From a virus: a stretch of 5,804 nucleotides of DNA. This document shows positions 1,574-5,804 of this stretch, one piece after another; position 1 is the first letter of the stretch, and every line of letters starts with the position of its first letter. The translations under genes were made by a program, and so were the position numbers. Under the pieces are notes generated by a model, which was not told where the DNA came from, searched no databases, and worked only from the letters and a program-made list of their open reading frames with translations. Location: the IMG/VR virus record IMGVR_UViG_3300023699_000001, positions 1-5,804 of that record. The stretch is one strand, 5' to 3'.

Positions 1574-2092
1574 ATGAATAGAATAAAACACGGACAAATT
1601 AATAAATGGTTTCCTGCACAGGCAGGAGAAGTACTAGAATTTGTCGCAAACAAACCGCGTCACGTAAAATTTGAAGTAACAACAAATTCAAATATAGAAA
1701 TTTGGGTTGCAACAAACAAAAAAATGCAAGATGCAATTTTAGTTGGAACAAGTGACGCAAAAACAGAAGTTCAATACACGGCAAATGAAACAACATATTG
1801 CCAAATAAAGGCTCAAAAAGGTTCAGCAGTATTTGTAAATCTTCCAGATTTAGATCAAACACGTGTGCAACCTGATGAAGCTGTATATACTAATATTGAG
1901 CCTCGAATAAATCAAAGCACTGAATTTGATCGTATGATGCAATATATGAAGCATAACGAGGCAATACGTAATCAAGAACTTGAGGCAGAACGTGCACAGC
2001 TACGTGAAGCAATACGCAATTTAGAAACAGCACCAACGCCAGAACCAATAGTAGAGGCAGAAACAGAAGATGCAGGAGAAACCACCACATAA
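1574..2092 (+). CDS. Hypothetical protein, 172 aa: beta-rich N-terminal ~100 aa, then a helical, acidic C-terminal tail. Possibly a scaffolding or decoration protein; function unknown.
   Basis: ATG 1574 is preceded by aaagga (1561-1566) at 7-nt spacing. It lies on the same strand as all core genes and fills the space between the VP1 terminator and the peptidase gene. The C-terminus reads ...EAERAQLREAIRNLETAPTPEPIVEAETEDAGETTT. I recognise no family motif. Confidence 0.65.
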   Translation: MNRIKHGQINKWFPAQAGEVLEFVANKPRHVKFEVTTNSNIEIWVATNKKMQDAILVGTSDAKTEVQYTANETTYCQIKAQKGSAVFVNLPDLDQTRVQPDEAVYTNIEPRINQSTEFDRMMQYMKHNEAIRNQELEAERAQLREAIRNLETAPTPEPIVEAETEDAGETTT

Positions 2093-2678
2093 ATTCTTTA
2101 GGTGGGTTTGGTTTTTAGACCGCATCCAGTTCTGGCATAAAGACGATCTAGTCCATCGGCGTTACGCTGATGCGGCTAGGTCGTTGGCAGTACCAAAAGA
2201 CCATTCAATATGGAAAAAAGTGCGCACAGAAGAAGCAGACTATAAAGGAGCACATTCCGATATAGTTGAATTCTTTAAAGCATTTCAAAAAGCTTGTCAT
2301 AAGAGGAATATACCTCTTAGAGCTTTTGAATTTGTACGTACTGCAGAACGCCAACAAGAATTATACGAAAAAGGCTTTACTAAAGCTCAAGCCGGTTTTG
2401 GCGCGCATCAATACGGGATGGCTTGCGATTGTATCGTAGGACATCTCGGTTGGAGCCTGTCAAAAAAGCAGTGGGCATGTCTTATCGCAATCGGAAAAGA
2501 GGTTGCAAGACGTAGGAATATAAAAATCGACAGTGGTTACGACTGGGATTTTTGGGATCCTGCCCATTGGGAATTGGAAGGTTGGAAAGAAATGATTGCT
2601 CCAAAGCAACCAGACAAACCTTACAAAAAAAACAAATTTTACGATATCAAAACAGGAAAATTACATGAAATTGAATAA
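2070..2678 (+). CDS. Peptidase M15 family zinc cell-wall hydrolase (VanY / L-alanyl-D-glutamate or D-Ala-D-Ala peptidase-like), putative lysin
   Basis: The translation carries the M15/LAS zinc-ligand pattern H-x6-D ... H. AHQYGMACD has H113 (cat 2406-2408) and D120 (gat 2427-2429); DPAHWE has H166 (cat 2565-2567). The upstream conserved R-x-x-E-x-Q-x-x-L-Y element is present as RTAERQQELY. The start is ambiguous. ATG 2070 overlaps the previous ORF by 23 nt and has a poor SD. An in-frame GTG at 2220 would give a 152-aa catalytic-domain-only protein. Confidence 0.8.
   Translation: MQEKPPHKFFRWVWFLDRIQFWHKDDLVHRRYADAARSLAVPKDHSIWKKVRTEEADYKGAHSDIVEFFKAFQKACHKRNIPLRAFEFVRTAERQQELYEKGFTKAQAGFGAHQYGMACDCIVGHLGWSLSKKQWACLIAIGKEVARRRNIKIDSGYDWDFWDPAHWELEGWKEMIAPKQPDKPYKKNKFYDIKTGKLHEIE
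2215..2223 (+). repeat. Copy 1 of recurrent word AAAAAGTGC
   Basis: Exact 9-mer, read directly. Its GTG (2220-2222) is in frame with the peptidase ORF. TATAAA follows at 2241-2246. Confidence 0.6.
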
Positions 2679-2830: not shown

Positions 2831-3871
2831 ATGTGTTTAACTCCCATAACATTAGACAACGGATCACAAGTTGCTTGTAAAGATTGTTGGCAGTGTAAAA
2901 GGCGGAAAGTTCAAGACTATGTAGGACGCGCAATAGCTGAAAGCAAATCGTCCACGAAGACATTTGCTGTAACATTAACCTACGGAGACGACAGTTTAAA
3001 AGAGCATGAAAAGGCTCATGCTGTCGTATTATGTTACAAAGACGTTCAGGATTTTTTGAAAAGATTGAGAAAAAACTATAACGTAAGATACATCGTGACT
3101 GGCGAATATGGAACAGCCAAGTCAAGAAGCCACTGGCACATAATACTCTTCTTTCAAGGAGATTATCCACACGTGCCAATGGAAAGGAGAACAAATTGGA
3201 CATATTGGAAAAAAGGATTTTCCTATTTCCAACAAGGTATCGACATAAAAGGATTTGAGTATTGTCTCAAATACGTCCTAAAGGACACAAACTCAGAAAC
3301 AAGCGAAAGTCATTTCGCAATGAGTACAAGGCCACCTTTAGGGCACGAATTTTTTCAAAAACTCGCAACACAACACGCAATTCAAGGATTAGCACCACAA
3401 AGTTATTTTTATAAGTTTGGAGATGTAAGGGATTACAAAAATCGGGACAAAGGTTTTATGATGAATGGGAAAACAAGAGAAAATTTTATGAGTAAATTTA
3501 TTGATGAATGGTACGCAAGATACCAACATCCACCCATTTCAGACATAGTAGACGAATTTATCGATAAAAATACAGATTTGTATTACACAGATGAAGAATT
3601 AGAAAAACGTCTACATTATAAACCAGTAAGATATATCGAGCCATGGCAACAGCCTGAGGGGCGAGGTTTATTAGATAAGACACAACTTGTTGAGGCAACA
3701 TATGACGGAATACCAATTTATTATTGGGAACACGAAGAACATAATGAACTTAAAATATATACGGAAACACAAGAATGGGTAGAAAAACGAGACGAAGTCG
3801 TAAAAACAATAAAAGATGGTTCGGTAATAATAAAAAAACAAAAACTAACAGAGTTCTGGAACGGATCCTAG
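2831..3871 (+). CDS. VP4: Rolling-circle replication initiation protein VP4 (HUH endonuclease, phiX gpA-like)
   Basis: The N-terminus MCLTPITL...CKDCWQCKRRK is typical of microvirus VP4. RCR motif 1 is FAVTLTY (aa 45-51). HUH motif 2 is HWHIILF (cac tgg cac at 3131-3139). Motif 3 is YCLKYVLK with two tyrosines four residues apart (tat 3260-3262, tac 3272-3274), as in the phiX174 A protein. Stop TAG 3869-3871. Confidence 0.93.
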   Translation: MCLTPITLDNGSQVACKDCWQCKRRKVQDYVGRAIAESKSSTKTFAVTLTYGDDSLKEHEKAHAVVLCYKDVQDFLKRLRKNYNVRYIVTGEYGTAKSRSHWHIILFFQGDYPHVPMERRTNWTYWKKGFSYFQQGIDIKGFEYCLKYVLKDTNSETSESHFAMSTRPPLGHEFFQKLATQHAIQGLAPQSYFYKFGDVRDYKNRDKGFMMNGKTRENFMSKFIDEWYARYQHPPISDIVDEFIDKNTDLYYTDEELEKRLHYKPVRYIEPWQQPEGRGLLDKTQLVEATYDGIPIYYWEHEEHNELKIYTETQEWVEKRDEVVKTIKDGSVIIKKQKLTEFWNGS

Positions 3872-4179
3872 GTCGCAGACGGACTGGCGGATCGAGGCCA
3901 CGGATATCTTTGATATCCCCCAAACCCCCCACTTTGGGGGGTTTGGGGGGATTTCTTAAATCCCCCCATCAAAACAAAAATGCGCGCTCGCGCGCTCAAT
4001 TTCGCCGCACAACACGTGACCACGTCTCAGAAGCCCTATCAAAAACAAATAGGTCGGATAAAAAGCCGCGCTTCGGTTGTAAGGATAAACCACGTCAAAG
4101 AGACCGCACTACGGGTTCTGGTGGTGGAAATAACGAAATAAACAAACAATTACCGAAAAAATACATTCCTTGGTGTTAA
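3775..4179 (+). CDS. Doubtful overprinted ORF, 134 aa, extremely Arg/Lys-rich
   Basis: It is open for 134 codons in the frame -1 relative to rep, overlaps the rep 3' end by 97 nt, then crosses the G/C hairpin cluster and the GC-rich island. It has only one ATG and a weak SD. The C-terminal third uses genome-typical codons (ggt, aaa, caa, tta). It could be a chance ORF. Confidence 0.25.
   Translation: MGRKTRRSRKNNKRWFGNNKKTKTNRVLERILGRRRTGGSRPRISLISPKPPTLGGLGGFLKSPHQNKNARSRAQFRRTTRDHVSEALSKTNRSDKKPRFGCKDKPRQRDRTTGSGGGNNEINKQLPKKYIPWC
3902..3967 (+). promoter_or_regulatory. Cluster of three adjacent or overlapping stem-loops built on C5-6/G6 runs. Candidate ssDNA origin element or rep terminator.
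   Basis: H1: ggatatc (3902-3908) / gatatcc (3912-3918), loop ttt. H2: cccccaaacccccc (3917-3930) / ggggggtttggggg (3936-3949), 14 bp, loop acttt. H3: ggggggattt (3945-3954) / aaatcccccc (3958-3967), 10 bp, loop ctt. Full-length H2 competes with H1 and H3. A trimmed H2 (3922-3930 / 3936-3944, 9 bp) lets all three coexist. Confidence 0.6.
3982..3997 (+). repeat. Tandem direct repeat GCGCGCTC x2 (alternating CG)
   Basis: gcgcgctc at 3982-3989 and 3990-3997. It can also fold as gcgcg (3982-3986) / cgcgc (3991-3995) with loop ctcg. The CACGTG palindrome lies nearby at 4013-4018. Confidence 0.7.
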
Positions 4180-4246
4180 AAAGATACAAAAAAATAAAAA
4201 AAAGACTTTACAAATCAAATTTTATAAGTCTACAAATACATATGGG

Positions 4247-4276
4247 GTGACACAAGAGTTTCAAATTGATCATAAT
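4247..4276 (+). promoter_or_regulatory. Candidate sigma70-type promoter for the small-ORF/VP2/VP1 block
   Basis: gtgaca (4247-4252; 5/6 to TTGACA), an 18-nt spacer, then cataat (4271-4276; 5/6 to TATAAT). It sits in the most AT-rich part of the window. My hand counts are 13/60 G+C for 4141-4200 and 17/60 for 4201-4260. The host is unknown, so the consensus may not apply. Confidence 0.3.
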
Positions 4277-4285
4277 ATATATTAT
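4272..4285. repeat. Perfect 14-nt palindrome ATAATATATATTAT
   Basis: Self-complementary on direct reading. It overlaps the candidate -10 box and resembles the inner arms plus spacer of XerCD dif sites. Confidence 0.7.
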
Positions 4286-4305
4286 CGGCCATTTGGACAC
4301 TTCAC

Positions 4306-4324: not shown

Positions 4325-4336
4325 TAAAAAGTGCAA
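4324..4336 (+). repeat. Copy 3 of recurrent word, extended 13-mer GTAAAAAGTGCAA
   Basis: Identical 13-mer to 5548-5560. It contains the proposed GTG start at 4331. Confidence 0.6.
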
Positions 4337-4510
4337 TTACTACTAATACAACAAATCCTAAAACCAGTAATCACAAGATGTGGTACAATTCTCGGTTCGT
4401 CGCTTGCCGGCGCCGGAATAGCCGTCGGTGATACGGAAAGTATCGTTTTAGGATTCACTGCACTAGCAGGAGTCGCGATCGATCTTATTACTAGGAGATG
4501 GATCAAATGA
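4331..4510 (+). CDS. Small membrane protein, 59 aa, two predicted TM segments plus a basic C-terminus. Holin/pinholin-like candidate.
   Basis: Not in the ORF track (GTG start, under 60 aa). An in-frame TAA at 4325-4327 means GTG 4331 is the first possible start. SD gaaggag lies 6 nt upstream. Translation: (M)QLLLIQQILKPVITRCGTILGSSLAGAGIAVGDTESIVLGFTALAGVAIDLITRRWIK. The stop TGA 4508-4510 overlaps the next ATG (ATGA). The track ORF 4282..4506(-) is its antisense shadow. Confidence 0.6.
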   Translation: MQLLLIQQILKPVITRCGTILGSSLAGAGIAVGDTESIVLGFTALAGVAIDLITRRWIK

Positions 4511-4602
4511 AATTAAAAGACATTATAATAGCAACAGTTGCCGGAATAATAATGGGTATAGCCCTATTTTCTGATGTCTTAATGAATACGGGAGCATTAT
4601 AA
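4507..4602 (+). CDS. Small single-pass membrane peptide, 31 aa
   Basis: ATG 4507 overlaps the upstream stop (ATGA). SD aggag (4493-4497) lies 9 nt upstream. Translation: MKLKDIIIATVAGIIMGIALFSDVLMNTGAL, with a hydrophobic core at residues 6-21. The stop TAA 4600-4602 directly abuts the VP2-like ATG 4603. Confidence 0.5.
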   Translation: MKLKDIIIATVAGIIMGIALFSDVLMNTGAL

Positions 4603-5544
4603 ATGGGAAATGAAACTTGGCGCGATGAAATAGAGTTTGGAGTTGGGTATGCAACTGGTAACCCTCTTGCGGCAAAAGTAGCAGGATGGGCATGGGATGC
4701 TTACACAAAAAACAAACCAAAAAAAAATACTGGTCACCCATCTGGCGGAACAGCCGATGGCAAACCAAATTACAATTACGGCGATTTAGCTAGCATAACA
4801 ATGCAAGCCGCCGCCGCGAGAAAATCACGTAAACAACAAGCGCAAGCAACGCAAAACGCAGGCAAGCTTGATCTAGGATACCTACGTCAAGAAGCTGAAA
4901 ACAATGGATTTAATCCATTAACAGTTTTGCAATCAACAGGCGGTGCCGGAAGCACAAAATCACCAAATGCAGGCTTATTAGCCTCGTCACAATTTTGGGC
5001 AACATATGCTGACGGTTTAGGCGAACTAAACAACAGGCAATATGAGCAAGGATTAATAGACGCAAACAAAAAACCTGAAAAAACAGAACGAGAAAAGTTT
5101 ATTGATCAATATAGAGTTCCATTATTAGTACCAGTTACAACTGGTGGAATGGACGGTGAAACAAACGTTAGTTATATGACAATAAACCCTGAATTAATGG
5201 AAACTCGTATGAGTGAATTAATGGGTTCAATGTTTGTTCAAGGTATTCAATACACATATCAAAATGGCGTTAATTTTAAAGGATTTTTAGACGCAGTTAA
5301 GGGTTTACCACCTGCTTTTACAAAATCATTAGAAAATTTATATGAACTTTTTGATGGAGAAGTGCCAACAGAAAAAGAATTAAAAGCCGCTGTTGCAAAA
5401 GAATTGGGTAAACAAGGCGCAGATATGCTTGGTGAGTATTTGCAAAGCAAATTACCAAAGAAAAATACAAGCATTAAAGAAAGCACTCTTCCACCACATG
5501 AATACGAATACAATATGTATGACGACACATATAAGAAAAAATAA
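4603..5544 (+). CDS. VP2: VP2-like minor capsid / DNA pilot protein, 313 aa
   Basis: SD ggag (4591-4594) lies 8 nt before the ATG. The size fits, with a Gly/Ala-rich N-terminus, a Gln/Ala-rich stretch (KSRKQQAQATQNAG) and EAENNGFNPLTVL, which resembles the AGLNP-type motif I recall from microvirus VP2/pilot proteins. It lies directly upstream of VP1. Coding status is near certain; the family call is moderate. Confidence 0.7.
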   Translation: MGNETWRDEIEFGVGYATGNPLAAKVAGWAWDAYTKNKPKKNTGHPSGGTADGKPNYNYGDLASITMQAAAARKSRKQQAQATQNAGKLDLGYLRQEAENNGFNPLTVLQSTGGAGSTKSPNAGLLASSQFWATYADGLGELNNRQYEQGLIDANKKPEKTEREKFIDQYRVPLLVPVTTGGMDGETNVSYMTINPELMETRMSELMGSMFVQGIQYTYQNGVNFKGFLDAVKGLPPAFTKSLENLYELFDGEVPTEKELKAAVAKELGKQGADMLGEYLQSKLPKKNTSIKESTLPPHEYEYNMYDDTYKKK

Positions 5545-5547
5545 TGT

Positions 5548-5560
5548 GTAAAAAGTGCAA
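5548..5560 (+). repeat. Copy 4 of recurrent word, extended 13-mer GTAAAAAGTGCAA
   Basis: Identical to 4324-4336. It lies in the VP2-VP1 spacer, 49 nt before the VP1 ATG. TATTAA follows at 5576-5581. Confidence 0.6.
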
Positions 5561-5608
5561 AAAAATAAGAAAAATTATTAAGCAAATCATTTTAAGGAGA
5601 AACAAAAA

Positions 5609-5804
5609 ATGAGAATGACTGAATTATTAACAACCACGCCAATAGCACAAAGGCGAAGTGTAAGAGGCCTTAAAAAAAGGATTCTTACAAGCTTTGATGC
5701 AGGCAAGATAATACCTTTATCTTATGAGTGGTTACACAGAGAGGACGCAGTACAATCTGGACGTGTACGTATAAACGTGCAATCAGAAATGTTTGCGGAC
5801 GGAA
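5609..5804 (+). CDS. VP1: Major capsid protein VP1, 5' portion (continues in frame at position 39 of the window / position 1 of the circle)
   Basis: ATG 5609 (a second ATG lies at 5615), with SD aaggag (5594-5599) 9 nt upstream. The frame is open to the window end and continuous with 1..1513 through the 38-nt overlap (5777 - 5609 = 168, a multiple of 3). Confidence 0.9.
   Translation, partial: MRMTELLTTTPIAQRRSVRGLKKRILTSFDAGKIIPLSYEWLHREDAVQSGRVRINVQSEMFADG
5767..5804. repeat. Terminal overlap, copy 2 (identical to 1..38)
   Basis: See copy 1. It defines a unit length of 5,766 nt. Confidence 0.95.

Follow-up and report, generated by a model that had tools for sequence, protein, structure and literature searches.

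A predicted M15C-type endolysin and a candidate holin in the genome of a marine Occultatumvirinae microvirus

Microvirus lysis genes and the genome in context

Protein E of phiX174, an overprinted membrane protein that is not an enzyme, inhibits murein synthesis (MraY); it serves host lysis for a microvirus, the same role that is predicted for the gene described here (ORF202). Peptidases were first recognized in microviruses in 2012, when Roux et al. reported M15_3 (PF08291) proteins in human-gut gokushoviruses and alpaviruses and proposed that they are horizontally acquired endolysins (PMC3394797); the original prediction of a peptidase in the present genome rightly made no claim to be the first. 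The M15_3 peptidases share the Peptidase_MD clan with ORF202 but belong to another Pfam family, and they are sporadic in their subfamilies, whereas ORF202 is inherited vertically in its clade and keeps to a fixed slot. Among ssDNA phages, the first peptidoglycan hydrolase to be verified by experiment, and the only verified microvirus lysin, is Gp7 of phage Ebor (Tainavirinae; PMC11980548), while no assay of any M15-type microvirus lysin was found in the literature searched. Ebor Gp7 resembles ORF202 in its slot between capsid and Rep and in its presumed role, and Ebor also encodes a small transmembrane (TM) protein, Gp1, upstream of VP2, as does the genome examined here. However, Gp7 is an amidase-type lysin (phrog_822, 9e-29) unrelated to ORF202, and it was rejected as validation of ORF202 (hhalign probability of 0.07% against the ORF202 family).

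The closest described systems belong to the Occultatumvirinae, or "Family 7", most of whose genomes carry a peptidase at a fixed place between capsid and Rep (PMC9239249, PMC11499846); subgroups 6 and 7 are reported to lack it (PMC11499846). The published Family 7 order is VP1 - peptidase/amidase - VP4 - VP2 (PMC9239249). The M15 metallopeptidases of CRPss-151, CRPss-152, CRPss-153, CRPss-155 and CRPss-251 (Occultatumvirinae; PMC11499846) are orthologous to ORF202 (45-49% identity over 78-88% of ORF202), occupy the same slot, preceded by the capsid gene and an ORF172-like gene, and share its type of N-terminal helix, and their genomes share small TM ORFs upstream of VP2. The same synteny (capsid-ORF-peptidase-Rep) occurs in alphaproteobacterial prophages and in Rhizobium microviruses (RHEph17 and the RHph_TM series; PMC9512667), whose "endolysin protein" matches phrog_465 and is 37% identical to ORF202 over the catalytic domain, and which encode a 67-aa protein with two TM domains upstream of VP2, as in the present genome. 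Unlike the latter, the Rhizobium microviruses are a high-GC soil lineage, and their endolysin has neither the aromatic/basic N-terminal segment of ORF202 nor any Pfam match.

The window, meaning the whole stretch of 5,804 nucleotides that was analysed, is a complete circular microvirus genome of 5,766 nt (38-nt terminal overlap). Its GC content of 38.1% lies within the range of the published low-GC Occultatumvirinae subgroups 9 and 11 (PMC11499846). The genes of the window, in genome order, are as follows.

5609 to 5804, continuing 39 to 1513 across the circular junction, + strand: major capsid protein VP1, 556 aa in total
1574 to 2092, + strand: ORF172, a syntenic gene upstream of ORF202 with a 23-nt overlap with the ORF202 start, present in 81 of 82 loci
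2070 to 2678, + strand: ORF202, LAS/M15C-type zinc peptidase, predicted endolysin (ATG start, 202 aa, 24.1 kDa, pI 9.3)
2831 to 3871, + strand: Rep / VP4, context gene (PF23343, 5e-16; phrog_942, 4e-33)
4331 to 4510, + strand: TM59, 59 aa with two Gly/Ala-rich TM segments, candidate holin (Kyte-Doolittle 1.66)
4507 to 4602, + strand: TM31, a 31-aa single-TM peptide (Kyte-Doolittle 2.29)
4603 to 5544, + strand: VP2-like pilot protein, context gene (GFNPLT motif)

This gene order was also found in 80 IMG/VR loci and 33 prophages, and its VP1-peptidase-VP4-VP2 arrangement agrees with that published for Family 7. Profile searches with the capsid-sized ORF gave no Pfam or PHROG match, including no match to Phage_F, and an NCBIfam search gave no match for any window protein. 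The reading that the window is not a microvirus was ruled out by tblastn to annotated microvirus capsids: the full 556-aa VP1 aligns over 100% of its length, at 58% identity, with the major capsid protein of the Roseobacter microvirus CRPss-151, bearing out the original assignment to a microvirus, and is 36-41% identical to the capsids of Rhizobium, tortoise and bat microviruses. The Rep protein is 53% identical to that of CRPss-151. Judged by these sequences, the phage belongs to the marine Occultatumvirinae / "Family 7". It represents a species-level lineage distinct from CRPss-151, because the capsids are 58% identical and the nucleotide identity is 66% over at most 31% of the genome.

Homologs of ORF202 were found in 27 database clusters and 197 IMG/VR loci, and all copies in bacterial genomes (33 of 33) belong to microvirus prophages of Alphaproteobacteria that show the same gene order. 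Homologs in cultured relatives are already annotated as "M15 family metallopeptidase" or "endolysin protein", and the gene has been assigned to lysis in the literature (PMC11499846, PMC9512667). ORF202, which takes up 10.6% of the genome, is thus the standard, already described lysis gene of its clade and not a rarity. The earlier view that a muralytic enzyme would be unusual in a microvirus, and costly to it, is out of date, given the fixed slot in most genomes of the clade (PMC9239249, PMC11499846) and the M15-related peptidase carried even by the 4.2-kb vB_RpoMi-Mini (PMC9865509). The genome therefore adds one more uncultivated marine member of the Occultatumvirinae carrying the standard M15 lysin, the commonest microvirus lysin type in clades infecting Alphaproteobacteria, and corrects the impression, derived from phiX174, that microviruses lyse their hosts solely through single-gene inhibitors of murein synthesis.

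Sequence, fold and predicted activity of ORF202

ORF202 can be divided into three parts, which differ in conservation and in the confidence of the AlphaFold model.

2070 to 2147, + strand: residues 1-26, conserved aromatic/basic N-terminal segment KFFRWVWFLDRIQFW, helical with low confidence in the model
2220 to 2597, + strand: residues 51-176, catalytic domain with R90, Q95, H113-x6-D120 and D163-x2-H166 (invariant columns; pLDDT 88-96; Foldseek)
2598 to 2675, + strand: residues 177-202, non-conserved C-terminal tail (amino acid identity 0.19; pLDDT below 50)

The original prediction had read a VanY/M15 cell-wall peptidase of the phage-endolysin type from the ORF at 2070-2678, its H113-x6-D120...H166 triad and the element RTAERQQELY. 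These positions are exact (RTAERQQELY at residues 90-99; H-x6-D found once in the protein, at 113-120; D163-P-A-H166), and in an alignment of 24 homologs the triad is invariant, as are R90, Q95 and D163. Evidence from a family profile, from profile matches to the PDB and from AlphaFold and Foldseek agrees with this reading, and ORF202 is accordingly classed, on sequence and model, as a predicted LAS/M15 zinc peptidase of the M15C (L-Ala-D-Glu endopeptidase) type.

Support from Pfam came from the family and not from the window protein alone. By itself, ORF202 reached 21 bits against VanY, under the 25-bit gathering score (E 2.9e-4), and matched neither PF13539 (M15_4) nor PF08291 (M15_3) at E-values up to 0.1, whereas the CRPss-151 peptidase passes PF13539. 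Among the orthologs, PF13539 (Peptidase_M15_4) was found in 20 of 24 (best 2.5e-9) and PF02557 (VanY) in 18 of 24. The low scores of the window protein appear to reflect sequence divergence, an example being the S of the S-x-H motif, which is G in ORF202. The match to phrog_465 "endolysin" had an E-value of 2e-12. Similarly, a PDB search with the single protein gave a chance match only (9uen, E 0.05), and the family profile was needed to retrieve LysECD7 (8q2g), RB49 (23ri), LysB4 (6akv), ChiX (5opz) and Ply500 (2vo9) at 8e-14 to 5e-12. In this profile, the H/D/H and other catalytic motifs align to those of 8q2g, 23ri and 6akv, with D163-P-A-H166 and R90/Q95 falling on KDGVH and VRSLETQ of LysECD7.

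The structural comparison that had been proposed as a check gave the same answer. The core of the AlphaFold model has a pLDDT of 88-96, and Foldseek returned a probability of 1.0 to the M15C enzymes ChiX, Ply500, LysECD7, LysB4 and RB49 (TM 0.57-0.77 normalised to target). These five L-Ala-D-Glu endopeptidases are the top PDB matches, followed by LdcB, VanXY and VanY, T5 endolysin and Hedgehog N-domains. The M15C enzymes, comprising the five named above (ChiX being from Serratia, and Ply500 and LysB4 being represented by their catalytic domains) and T5 endolysin (2mxz), have the LAS fold and the active-site layout of ORF202 (R...Q, H-x6-D, D-x2-H) at 20-22% identity. Their Gram-negative members are mostly single-domain proteins of about 130 aa, to which ORF202 adds about 50 N-terminal residues and the 26-residue tail. 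The T5-like designation made earlier stands for the T5/Ply500-like M15C class, but T5 endolysin itself matches only distantly (rank 29, E 0.024).

Following the nearest characterised relatives, ORF202 would depend on zinc and cleave peptidoglycan stem peptides at the L-Ala-D-Glu bond, with H113, D120 and H166 as predicted zinc ligands, D163 as the predicted general base and R90/Q95 lining the substrate pocket. Small single-domain M15C enzymes active on Gram-negative bacteria are of some interest as enzybiotics (cf. LysECD7). It has to be considered whether ORF202 could instead be a wall-remodelling carboxypeptidase of the VanY/LdcB kind (acting, for example, in superinfection exclusion, or in a prophage or carrier state) while another gene lyses the cell. 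Pfam names both matching families "D-alanyl-D-alanine carboxypeptidase", LdcB, VanY and VanXY are second-tier structural matches, clade members occur as prophages, and the cultured CRPss-154 of the same clade has no peptidase gene (PMC11499846). However, L-Ala-D-Glu endopeptidase endolysins supply all of the best matches in both sequence and structure, with Foldseek E-values 3 to 4 orders of magnitude better than those of the carboxypeptidases; ORF202 lacks the export signal that a periplasmic housekeeping enzyme would need; and the different 191-aa gene that CRPss-154 carries in the same slot could be a replacement lysin. Non-lytic trimming of the wall is therefore very improbable.

The conservation of the N-terminus bears on both the start codon and the role of the protein. 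Codon-position identity across 73 homologs follows the coding pattern (position 2 > 1 > 3) in the N-terminal extension as well as in the core, and ORF202 is under purifying selection. Residues 1-26 (amino acid identity 0.62; codon-position identity 0.73/0.81/0.52; pLDDT 44-53) are conserved at least as strongly as the catalytic core in the homolog alignment. Of the two starts put forward originally, both in frame, ATG-2070 gives the conserved form, GTG-2220 being codon 51.

Such conservation would also suit an enzyme packaged in the virion, perhaps tethered to the ssDNA or the capsid interior by its basic N-terminus, that opens murein locally at genome delivery. In copies from Rhodobacterales prophages the N-terminal segment is strongly basic and amphipathic (e.g. 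IRRIIQRFIRRG; net charge of +4 to +7) and resembles the DNA-contacting arms of ssDNA-virus proteins. In the window, though, this N-terminus is weakly amphipathic with a net charge of +1, and RHEph17 lacks the segment. The T=1 capsid of microviruses has scant room for a 24-kDa passenger, and the characterised close relatives of ORF202 are all endolysins or the holin-exported ChiX. The Ebor lysin is detectable in virions, but as a trace component, the significant ones being only VP1, VP2 and the basic Gp10 (PMC11980548). Taken together, these observations make a virion-associated entry enzyme unlikely.

Export of the peptidase and the candidate holin

No signal peptide or SAR segment was found in ORF202, its Kyte-Doolittle 19-residue maximum being -0.2 for residues 1-55 and 0.67 for the whole protein. 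This confirms the earlier reading of the N-terminal extension, and the missing signal peptide supports the accompanying statement that export needs a partner. Several M15C enzymes likewise lack signal peptides; the comparison enzymes are from dsDNA phages, in which holin genes lie alongside, and the export of ChiX relies on a holin-like protein. ORF202 is probably the endolysin of this marine Occultatumvirinae / Family 7 microvirus, a soluble cytoplasmic LAS-fold enzyme of the M15C type that would gain access to murein late in infection. Since it has no secretion signal, passage through a lesion in the inner membrane would be needed, and the best candidate for making this lesion is TM59, perhaps together with TM31.

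TM59 and TM31 are protein-coding and under strong purifying selection. TM59 (codon-position identity 0.85/0.97/0.58; median amino acid identity 90%) has an invariant Asp in its second TM domain and a basic C-terminus, RRWIK, and TM31 (0.83/0.95/0.70; median identity 81%) starts within an overlap with the TM59 stop and lies directly upstream of VP2. Their conservation of 81-90% compares with about 57% for every other gene. Of 49 near-complete loci that have the peptidase, 47 encode both, and the design of TM59 with two TM domains is common to CRPss-151, CRPss-251 and RHEph17, thus spanning marine to Rhizobium members. The co-occurrence of peptidase and TM59 was surveyed in 51 near-complete loci, retrieved with a capsid alignment as query (a single-sequence capsid query retrieved nothing), and only one genuine peptidase-less genome, CRPss-154, was identified. 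TM31 was also considered as a read-through N-terminal domain of VP2, which was rejected as a general feature, the two being in frame only in the closest kin of the window.

TM59 has traits expected of a holin, namely small size, one or more TM segments and a charged C-terminus, yet of all the assignments made here the holin is the most tentative. TM59 matched no holin family in Pfam or PHROG, its relatives (5 clusters) are all microviral with none outside the clade, and its counterparts are labelled hypothetical in phage records. Typical holins evolve fast, unlike TM59 with its 90% conservation. TM59 is also not adjacent to the endolysin gene, lying 1.65 kb downstream of ORF202 with Rep in between; because of this distance and its position adjoining VP2, it could act in DNA piloting or entry instead.

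It is possible, although we consider it somewhat doubtful, that the M15 lysin and TM59 (perhaps with TM31) form a minimal, physically split holin-endolysin system, in which the N-terminal helix of the lysin docks at the membrane or takes the part of spanins in helping to open the outer membrane. If so, the conservation of the TM proteins would point to an interaction under constraint, such as one with a host membrane target that is itself conserved, rather than to unspecific hole formation. No spanin-like gene for the outer membrane was identified in the genome.

A further potential explanation dispenses with TM59 and TM31 altogether, the aromatic/basic N-terminal helix of ORF202 itself binding or perturbing membranes and thereby giving access to murein, or helping to open the outer membrane as a substitute for spanins. 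This would account for a segment that is conserved and translated in a genome in which neither Pfam nor PHROG detected a spanin or known holin family, and the marine consensus of the segment, FLRWIRFIDRI, shows a hydrophobic moment of 0.97 over 11 residues, a value that only 7 of 1000 shuffles reached. In the window itself, however, the amphipathicity of the segment is not significant (0.71, reached by 147 of 1000 shuffles), the segment is modelled with low confidence, and selection acts very strongly on the two dedicated small TM proteins that these genomes encode. An endolysin independent of a holin is accordingly improbable. For an endolysin that leaves the cytoplasm through a membrane lesion, the preferred reading, the two highly conserved small membrane proteins offer a concrete hypothesis of how a signal-less lysin could do so in a 5.8-kb phage.

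Non-coding elements and the gene upstream of ORF202

Three non-coding elements were recorded, two of which flank the ORF172-ORF202 pair.

1522 to 1548, + strand: terminator-like hairpin with a T-run, between the capsid gene and the pair (dG -11.1 kcal/mol, z -4.9)
2687 to 2733, + strand: strong hairpin beginning 9 nt past the ORF202 stop codon, with no T-run after it (dG -18 kcal/mol, z -6.25)
4244 to 4295, + strand: near-invariant non-coding block, candidate promoter and/or replication origin, containing the genome's best sigma-70-like site (4247-4276)

The block at 4244-4295 was rejected as a structured element, its folding being no better than that of shuffles (z 0.37), and its likeness to the phiX174 origin, though striking in position, is not statistically significant. 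ORF172, immediately upstream of the peptidase, combines a beta-sandwich with a long helix and an acidic tail. A function as a lysis accessory is unsupported, its structure matching only generic beta-sandwiches (E at least 3e-3), and ORF172 is probably an assembly protein.

The ORF202 peptidase

As originally predicted, ORF202 occupies positions 2070-2678 on the + strand, starts with ATG and encodes 202 aa; H113, D120 and H166 fall where they had been reported, H-x6-D is found once in the protein, and RTAERQQELY begins at residue 90. In Pfam searches, the M15/VanY assignment held for the family but not for ORF202 alone, which reached 21 bits for VanY, below the 25-bit cut-off, and matched neither M15_4 nor M15_3; members of the 24-sequence family did match, 20 of them PF13539 (Peptidase_M15_4) and 18 PF02557 (VanY). 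ORF202 itself matched phrog_465 'endolysin' at 2e-12, and its homologs fell into 27 clusters, many of them from 5.6-6.1-kb contigs. R90, Q95, H113, D120, D163 and H166 are invariant in the 24-sequence alignment, and the family profile matched the solved structures of LysECD7, RB49 endolysin, LysB4, ChiX and Ply500 at 8e-14 to 5e-12, with the R...Q, H-x6-D and D-x2-H motifs aligned. The AlphaFold2 model, confident at residues about 30-175 (pLDDT 88-96), had the same five proteins as its top Foldseek PDB matches (probability 1.0, target-normalised TM 0.57-0.77), followed by VanY/LdcB/VanXY, the T5 endolysin (rank 29) and then Hedgehog N-domains. These peptidase groups and the Hedgehog N-domains form the LAS superfamily. 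Since profile, motif-alignment and fold evidence agree, the M15/LAS assignment is sound and ORF202 is confirmed as an M15/LAS peptidase. The characterised enzymes closest to it are without exception L-Ala-D-Glu endopeptidases of the M15C type; we therefore infer cleavage of the same bond as the best prediction of its specificity.

Of the two starts considered for the protein, ATG-2070 and the in-frame GTG-2220 (codon 51), conservation favours the first. A Met aligned to ATG-2070 opens all 73 IMG/VR homologs, in which residues 1-26 show a coding pattern of identity at codon positions 1/2/3 (0.73/0.81/0.52) and an amino-acid identity (62%) slightly above that of the catalytic core (58%); the full-length form is therefore the one under selection, and an additional internal start may be used besides it. 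The C-terminal 26 residues are 19% identical and of low confidence in the model.

Lineage and inheritance of the peptidase

An exact 38-nt direct repeat at the window's termini (1-38 = 5767-5804) indicates that the genome is circular and complete, 5,766 nt long, and was assembled with an overlap. All sizeable genes lie on the + strand, in the order VP1, ORF172, ORF202, Rep, ORF134, two small TM ORFs and VP2 (VP2-like pilot protein):

5609-5804 + 39-1513, + strand: VP1 (major capsid protein), 556 aa, spanning the circular junction
1574-2092, + strand: ORF172, syntenic across the clade, with a 23-nt overlap with the ORF202 start
3775-4179, + strand: ORF134, basic (pI 12.0), overlapping the Rep 3' end
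4331-4510, + strand: TM59, small hydrophobic ORF of 59 aa just upstream of VP2
4507-4602, + strand: TM31, small hydrophobic ORF of 31 aa just upstream of VP2

Because the capsid gene crosses the junction, the ORF list gives a shortened 500-aa version from a spurious GTG at position 11. The microvirus label was put to the test because the 556-aa protein had no Pfam (Phage_F included) or PHROG match, even at E = 1. In tblastn searches of annotated phage records, VP1 shares 58% identity from end to end with the major capsid protein of Roseobacter phages CRPss-151/153/155, and 36-41% with those of Rhizobium, tortoise, bat and rat microviruses; the full-length match upholds the assignment to a microvirus. 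Rep matches PF23343 and phrog_942, and the gene order agrees with the VP1-peptidase/amidase-VP4-VP2 order of Families 7 and 14 (Kirchberger et al., PMC9239249), Family 7 and Occultatumvirinae being one group (PMC11499846). The GC content of 38.1% falls within the values published for subgroups 9 and 11, which are marine and low in GC. As the capsid of this clade is invisible to profiles, profile-based annotation would overlook such phages. Compared with the window, the closest IMG/VR relatives L004-L008 are 89-100% identical in Rep, peptidase, ORF172 and TM59, 83-86% in the capsid and 65-81% in VP2, a pattern for which either faster divergence or exchange of the structural module could account.

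The original prediction had regarded a muralytic enzyme in so small a genome as a costly and unusual investment. Although ORF202 takes up 10.6% of the genome, published and annotated microvirus lysins make this view outdated. M15_3 peptidases were first reported in gokusho- and alpaviruses by Roux et al. (2012), with an endolysin role proposed (PMC3394797); Families 2, 7 and 14 carry lysis-associated genes at a constant position between VP1 and VP4 (Kirchberger et al. 2022, PMC9239249); mcp, rep and lys are described in Rhizobium microviruses (PMC9512667); a peptidase/endolysin-like protein is present in most Occultatumvirinae genomes, missing only from subgroups 6 and 7 (Zhang et al. 2024, PMC11499846); and the 4.2-kb vB_RpoMi-Mini also encodes an M15-related peptidase (PMC9865509). 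GenBank already labels ORF202 orthologs 'M15 family metallopeptidase' or 'endolysin protein', and ORF202 adds to a gene kind that is well described. The sole experimentally verified ssDNA-phage peptidoglycan hydrolase found in the searched literature is Gp7 of the related microvirus Ebor, a trace virion component that broke down Rhodobacter sacculi (PMC11980548). Gp7 is an amidase-type lysin (phrog_822 at 9e-29); compared by hhalign, it and the ORF202 family show no sign of relatedness (probability 0.07%), so the searchable literature holds no assay of the M15 type.

Relatives of ORF202 are encoded at 197 IMG/VR loci, 80 of which were retained; nearly all of these are 5-6-kb microviral contigs, and several copies (L003-L008) are 95-100% identical to ORF202. 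In bacteria, sampled at one genome per species, all 33 relatives occur in Alphaproteobacteria (Rhodobacterales and Hyphomicrobiales), each inside an integrated microvirus whose genes run VP2-capsid-ORF172-like-peptidase-Rep, and their peptidase identity declines in parallel with capsid identity. Judged from these sequences, the peptidase has long been a fixed part of genomes in this clade, passed on by vertical inheritance and not acquired sporadically.

Proposed release of the enzyme, and the small membrane proteins

The N-terminal segment of ORF202 has neither a signal peptide, as had been predicted, nor a SAR domain (Kyte-Doolittle maximum -0.2). In the marine consensus (FLRWIRFIDRI) and in Rhodobacterales prophage copies (e.g. 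IRRIIQRFIRRG) it is a basic amphipathic helix with a hydrophobic moment of about 1.0, which for most of them no more than 7 of 1000 shuffles attained; the window's own helix is less amphipathic than the consensus, and Rhizobium phage RHEph17 does not have the basic segment. ORF202 probably acts as a canonical cytoplasmic endolysin that would be freed through a membrane lesion, while confidence in any specific partner for that lesion is much lower.

TM59 and TM31, both of TM-grade hydrophobicity, surpass all other genes of the genome by a wide margin in conservation among relatives. Over 74 divergent loci their median amino-acid identities are 90% and 81%, whereas capsid, ORF172, peptidase and Rep reach 57-58% and VP2 44%. 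Their codon-position pattern (identity at positions 1/2/3 of 0.85/0.97/0.58 for TM59 and 0.83/0.95/0.70 for TM31) indicates purifying selection at the protein level, beyond a mere DNA element, and phage records leave both genes without annotation or as 'hypothetical'. TM59 begins with a short helix, continues through a TMD1 rich in Gly/Ala, a polar loop and a TMD2 in which one Asp is invariant, and ends in a short basic tail, a design shared by cultured CRPss-151, CRPss-251 and Rhizobium phage RHEph17. This layout resembles that of a class-II holin and makes TM59 a candidate holin; however, it is not adjacent to the lysin gene, and conservation this strong is atypical of holins. TM59 had no homology to any holin family in Pfam or PHROG and no relative was found beyond the clade; a term search of three clade papers (PMC11499846, PMC9753089, PMC11980548) found no mention of a holin. 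It is equally possible that TM59 serves DNA piloting together with VP2. A minimal split holin-endolysin system, in which these conserved TM proteins would act together with the N-terminal helix of the lysin, is a rather doubtful extension of the endolysin reading. In a single case, the cultured Roseobacter phage CRPss-154, both the M15 peptidase and a TM59-like ORF are missing; an HNH endonuclease occupies the TM59 position, and the peptidase slot holds:

5145-5720 of CRPss-154: replacement ORF of 191 aa, unrelated to the M15 peptidase

This protein, for which Pfam, PHROG and the A1 profile all gave no match, could be a replacement lysin that has escaped recognition.

TM59 starts with GTG at 4331, and a strong AAGGAG Shine-Dalgarno ends 6 nt upstream. 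The first base of this codon differs in 19 of 19 aligned relatives, with the next bases conserved; our guess is that the relatives use a more usual start such as ATG. TM31 and VP2 share a frame, parted by a single TAA (…NTGAL*MGNETW…; 4507-4605). The frame is shared in 9 of 43 loci, the window's closest relatives only, and is thus more probably a coincidence than a sign of programmed read-through.

Neighbouring genes and nucleic-acid elements

ORF172 is kept in 81 of 82 loci and also in prophages. In its model, residues 1-90 form a beta-sandwich and residues 115-152 a long helix, and the tail is acidic and disordered; structural matches are generic, the best, a weak one, being to nucleoplasmin-like pentameric chaperone domains (E 3e-3), and the modelled protein may serve in scaffolding or assembly. 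The overlap of ORF134 with the Rep 3' end parallels that of Gp10, a virion protein of Ebor. The following elements were found:

1522-1548: terminator-like hairpin (z -4.9), one flank of the ORF172-ORF202 pair
2687-2733: strong hairpin (dG -18 kcal/mol, z -6.25), the other flank of the pair
3912-3968: two tandem G/C-tract hairpins, CCCCCAAACCCCCC / GGGGGGTTTGGGGG (15-bp perfect stem, dG -21 kcal/mol, z -4.1), just past the Rep stop and within ORF134
4244-4295: near-invariant non-coding block upstream of TM59

The 4244-4295 block has no stable fold (z 0.37) and may be a promoter, a Rep nick site or both. The best match in the window to the phiX174 origin 30-mer lies at 4262-4291 (22 of 29 identical, a score equalled in 68 of 200 shuffles), and the block contains the genome's best sigma-70-like site (4247-4276, + strand, 10/12).
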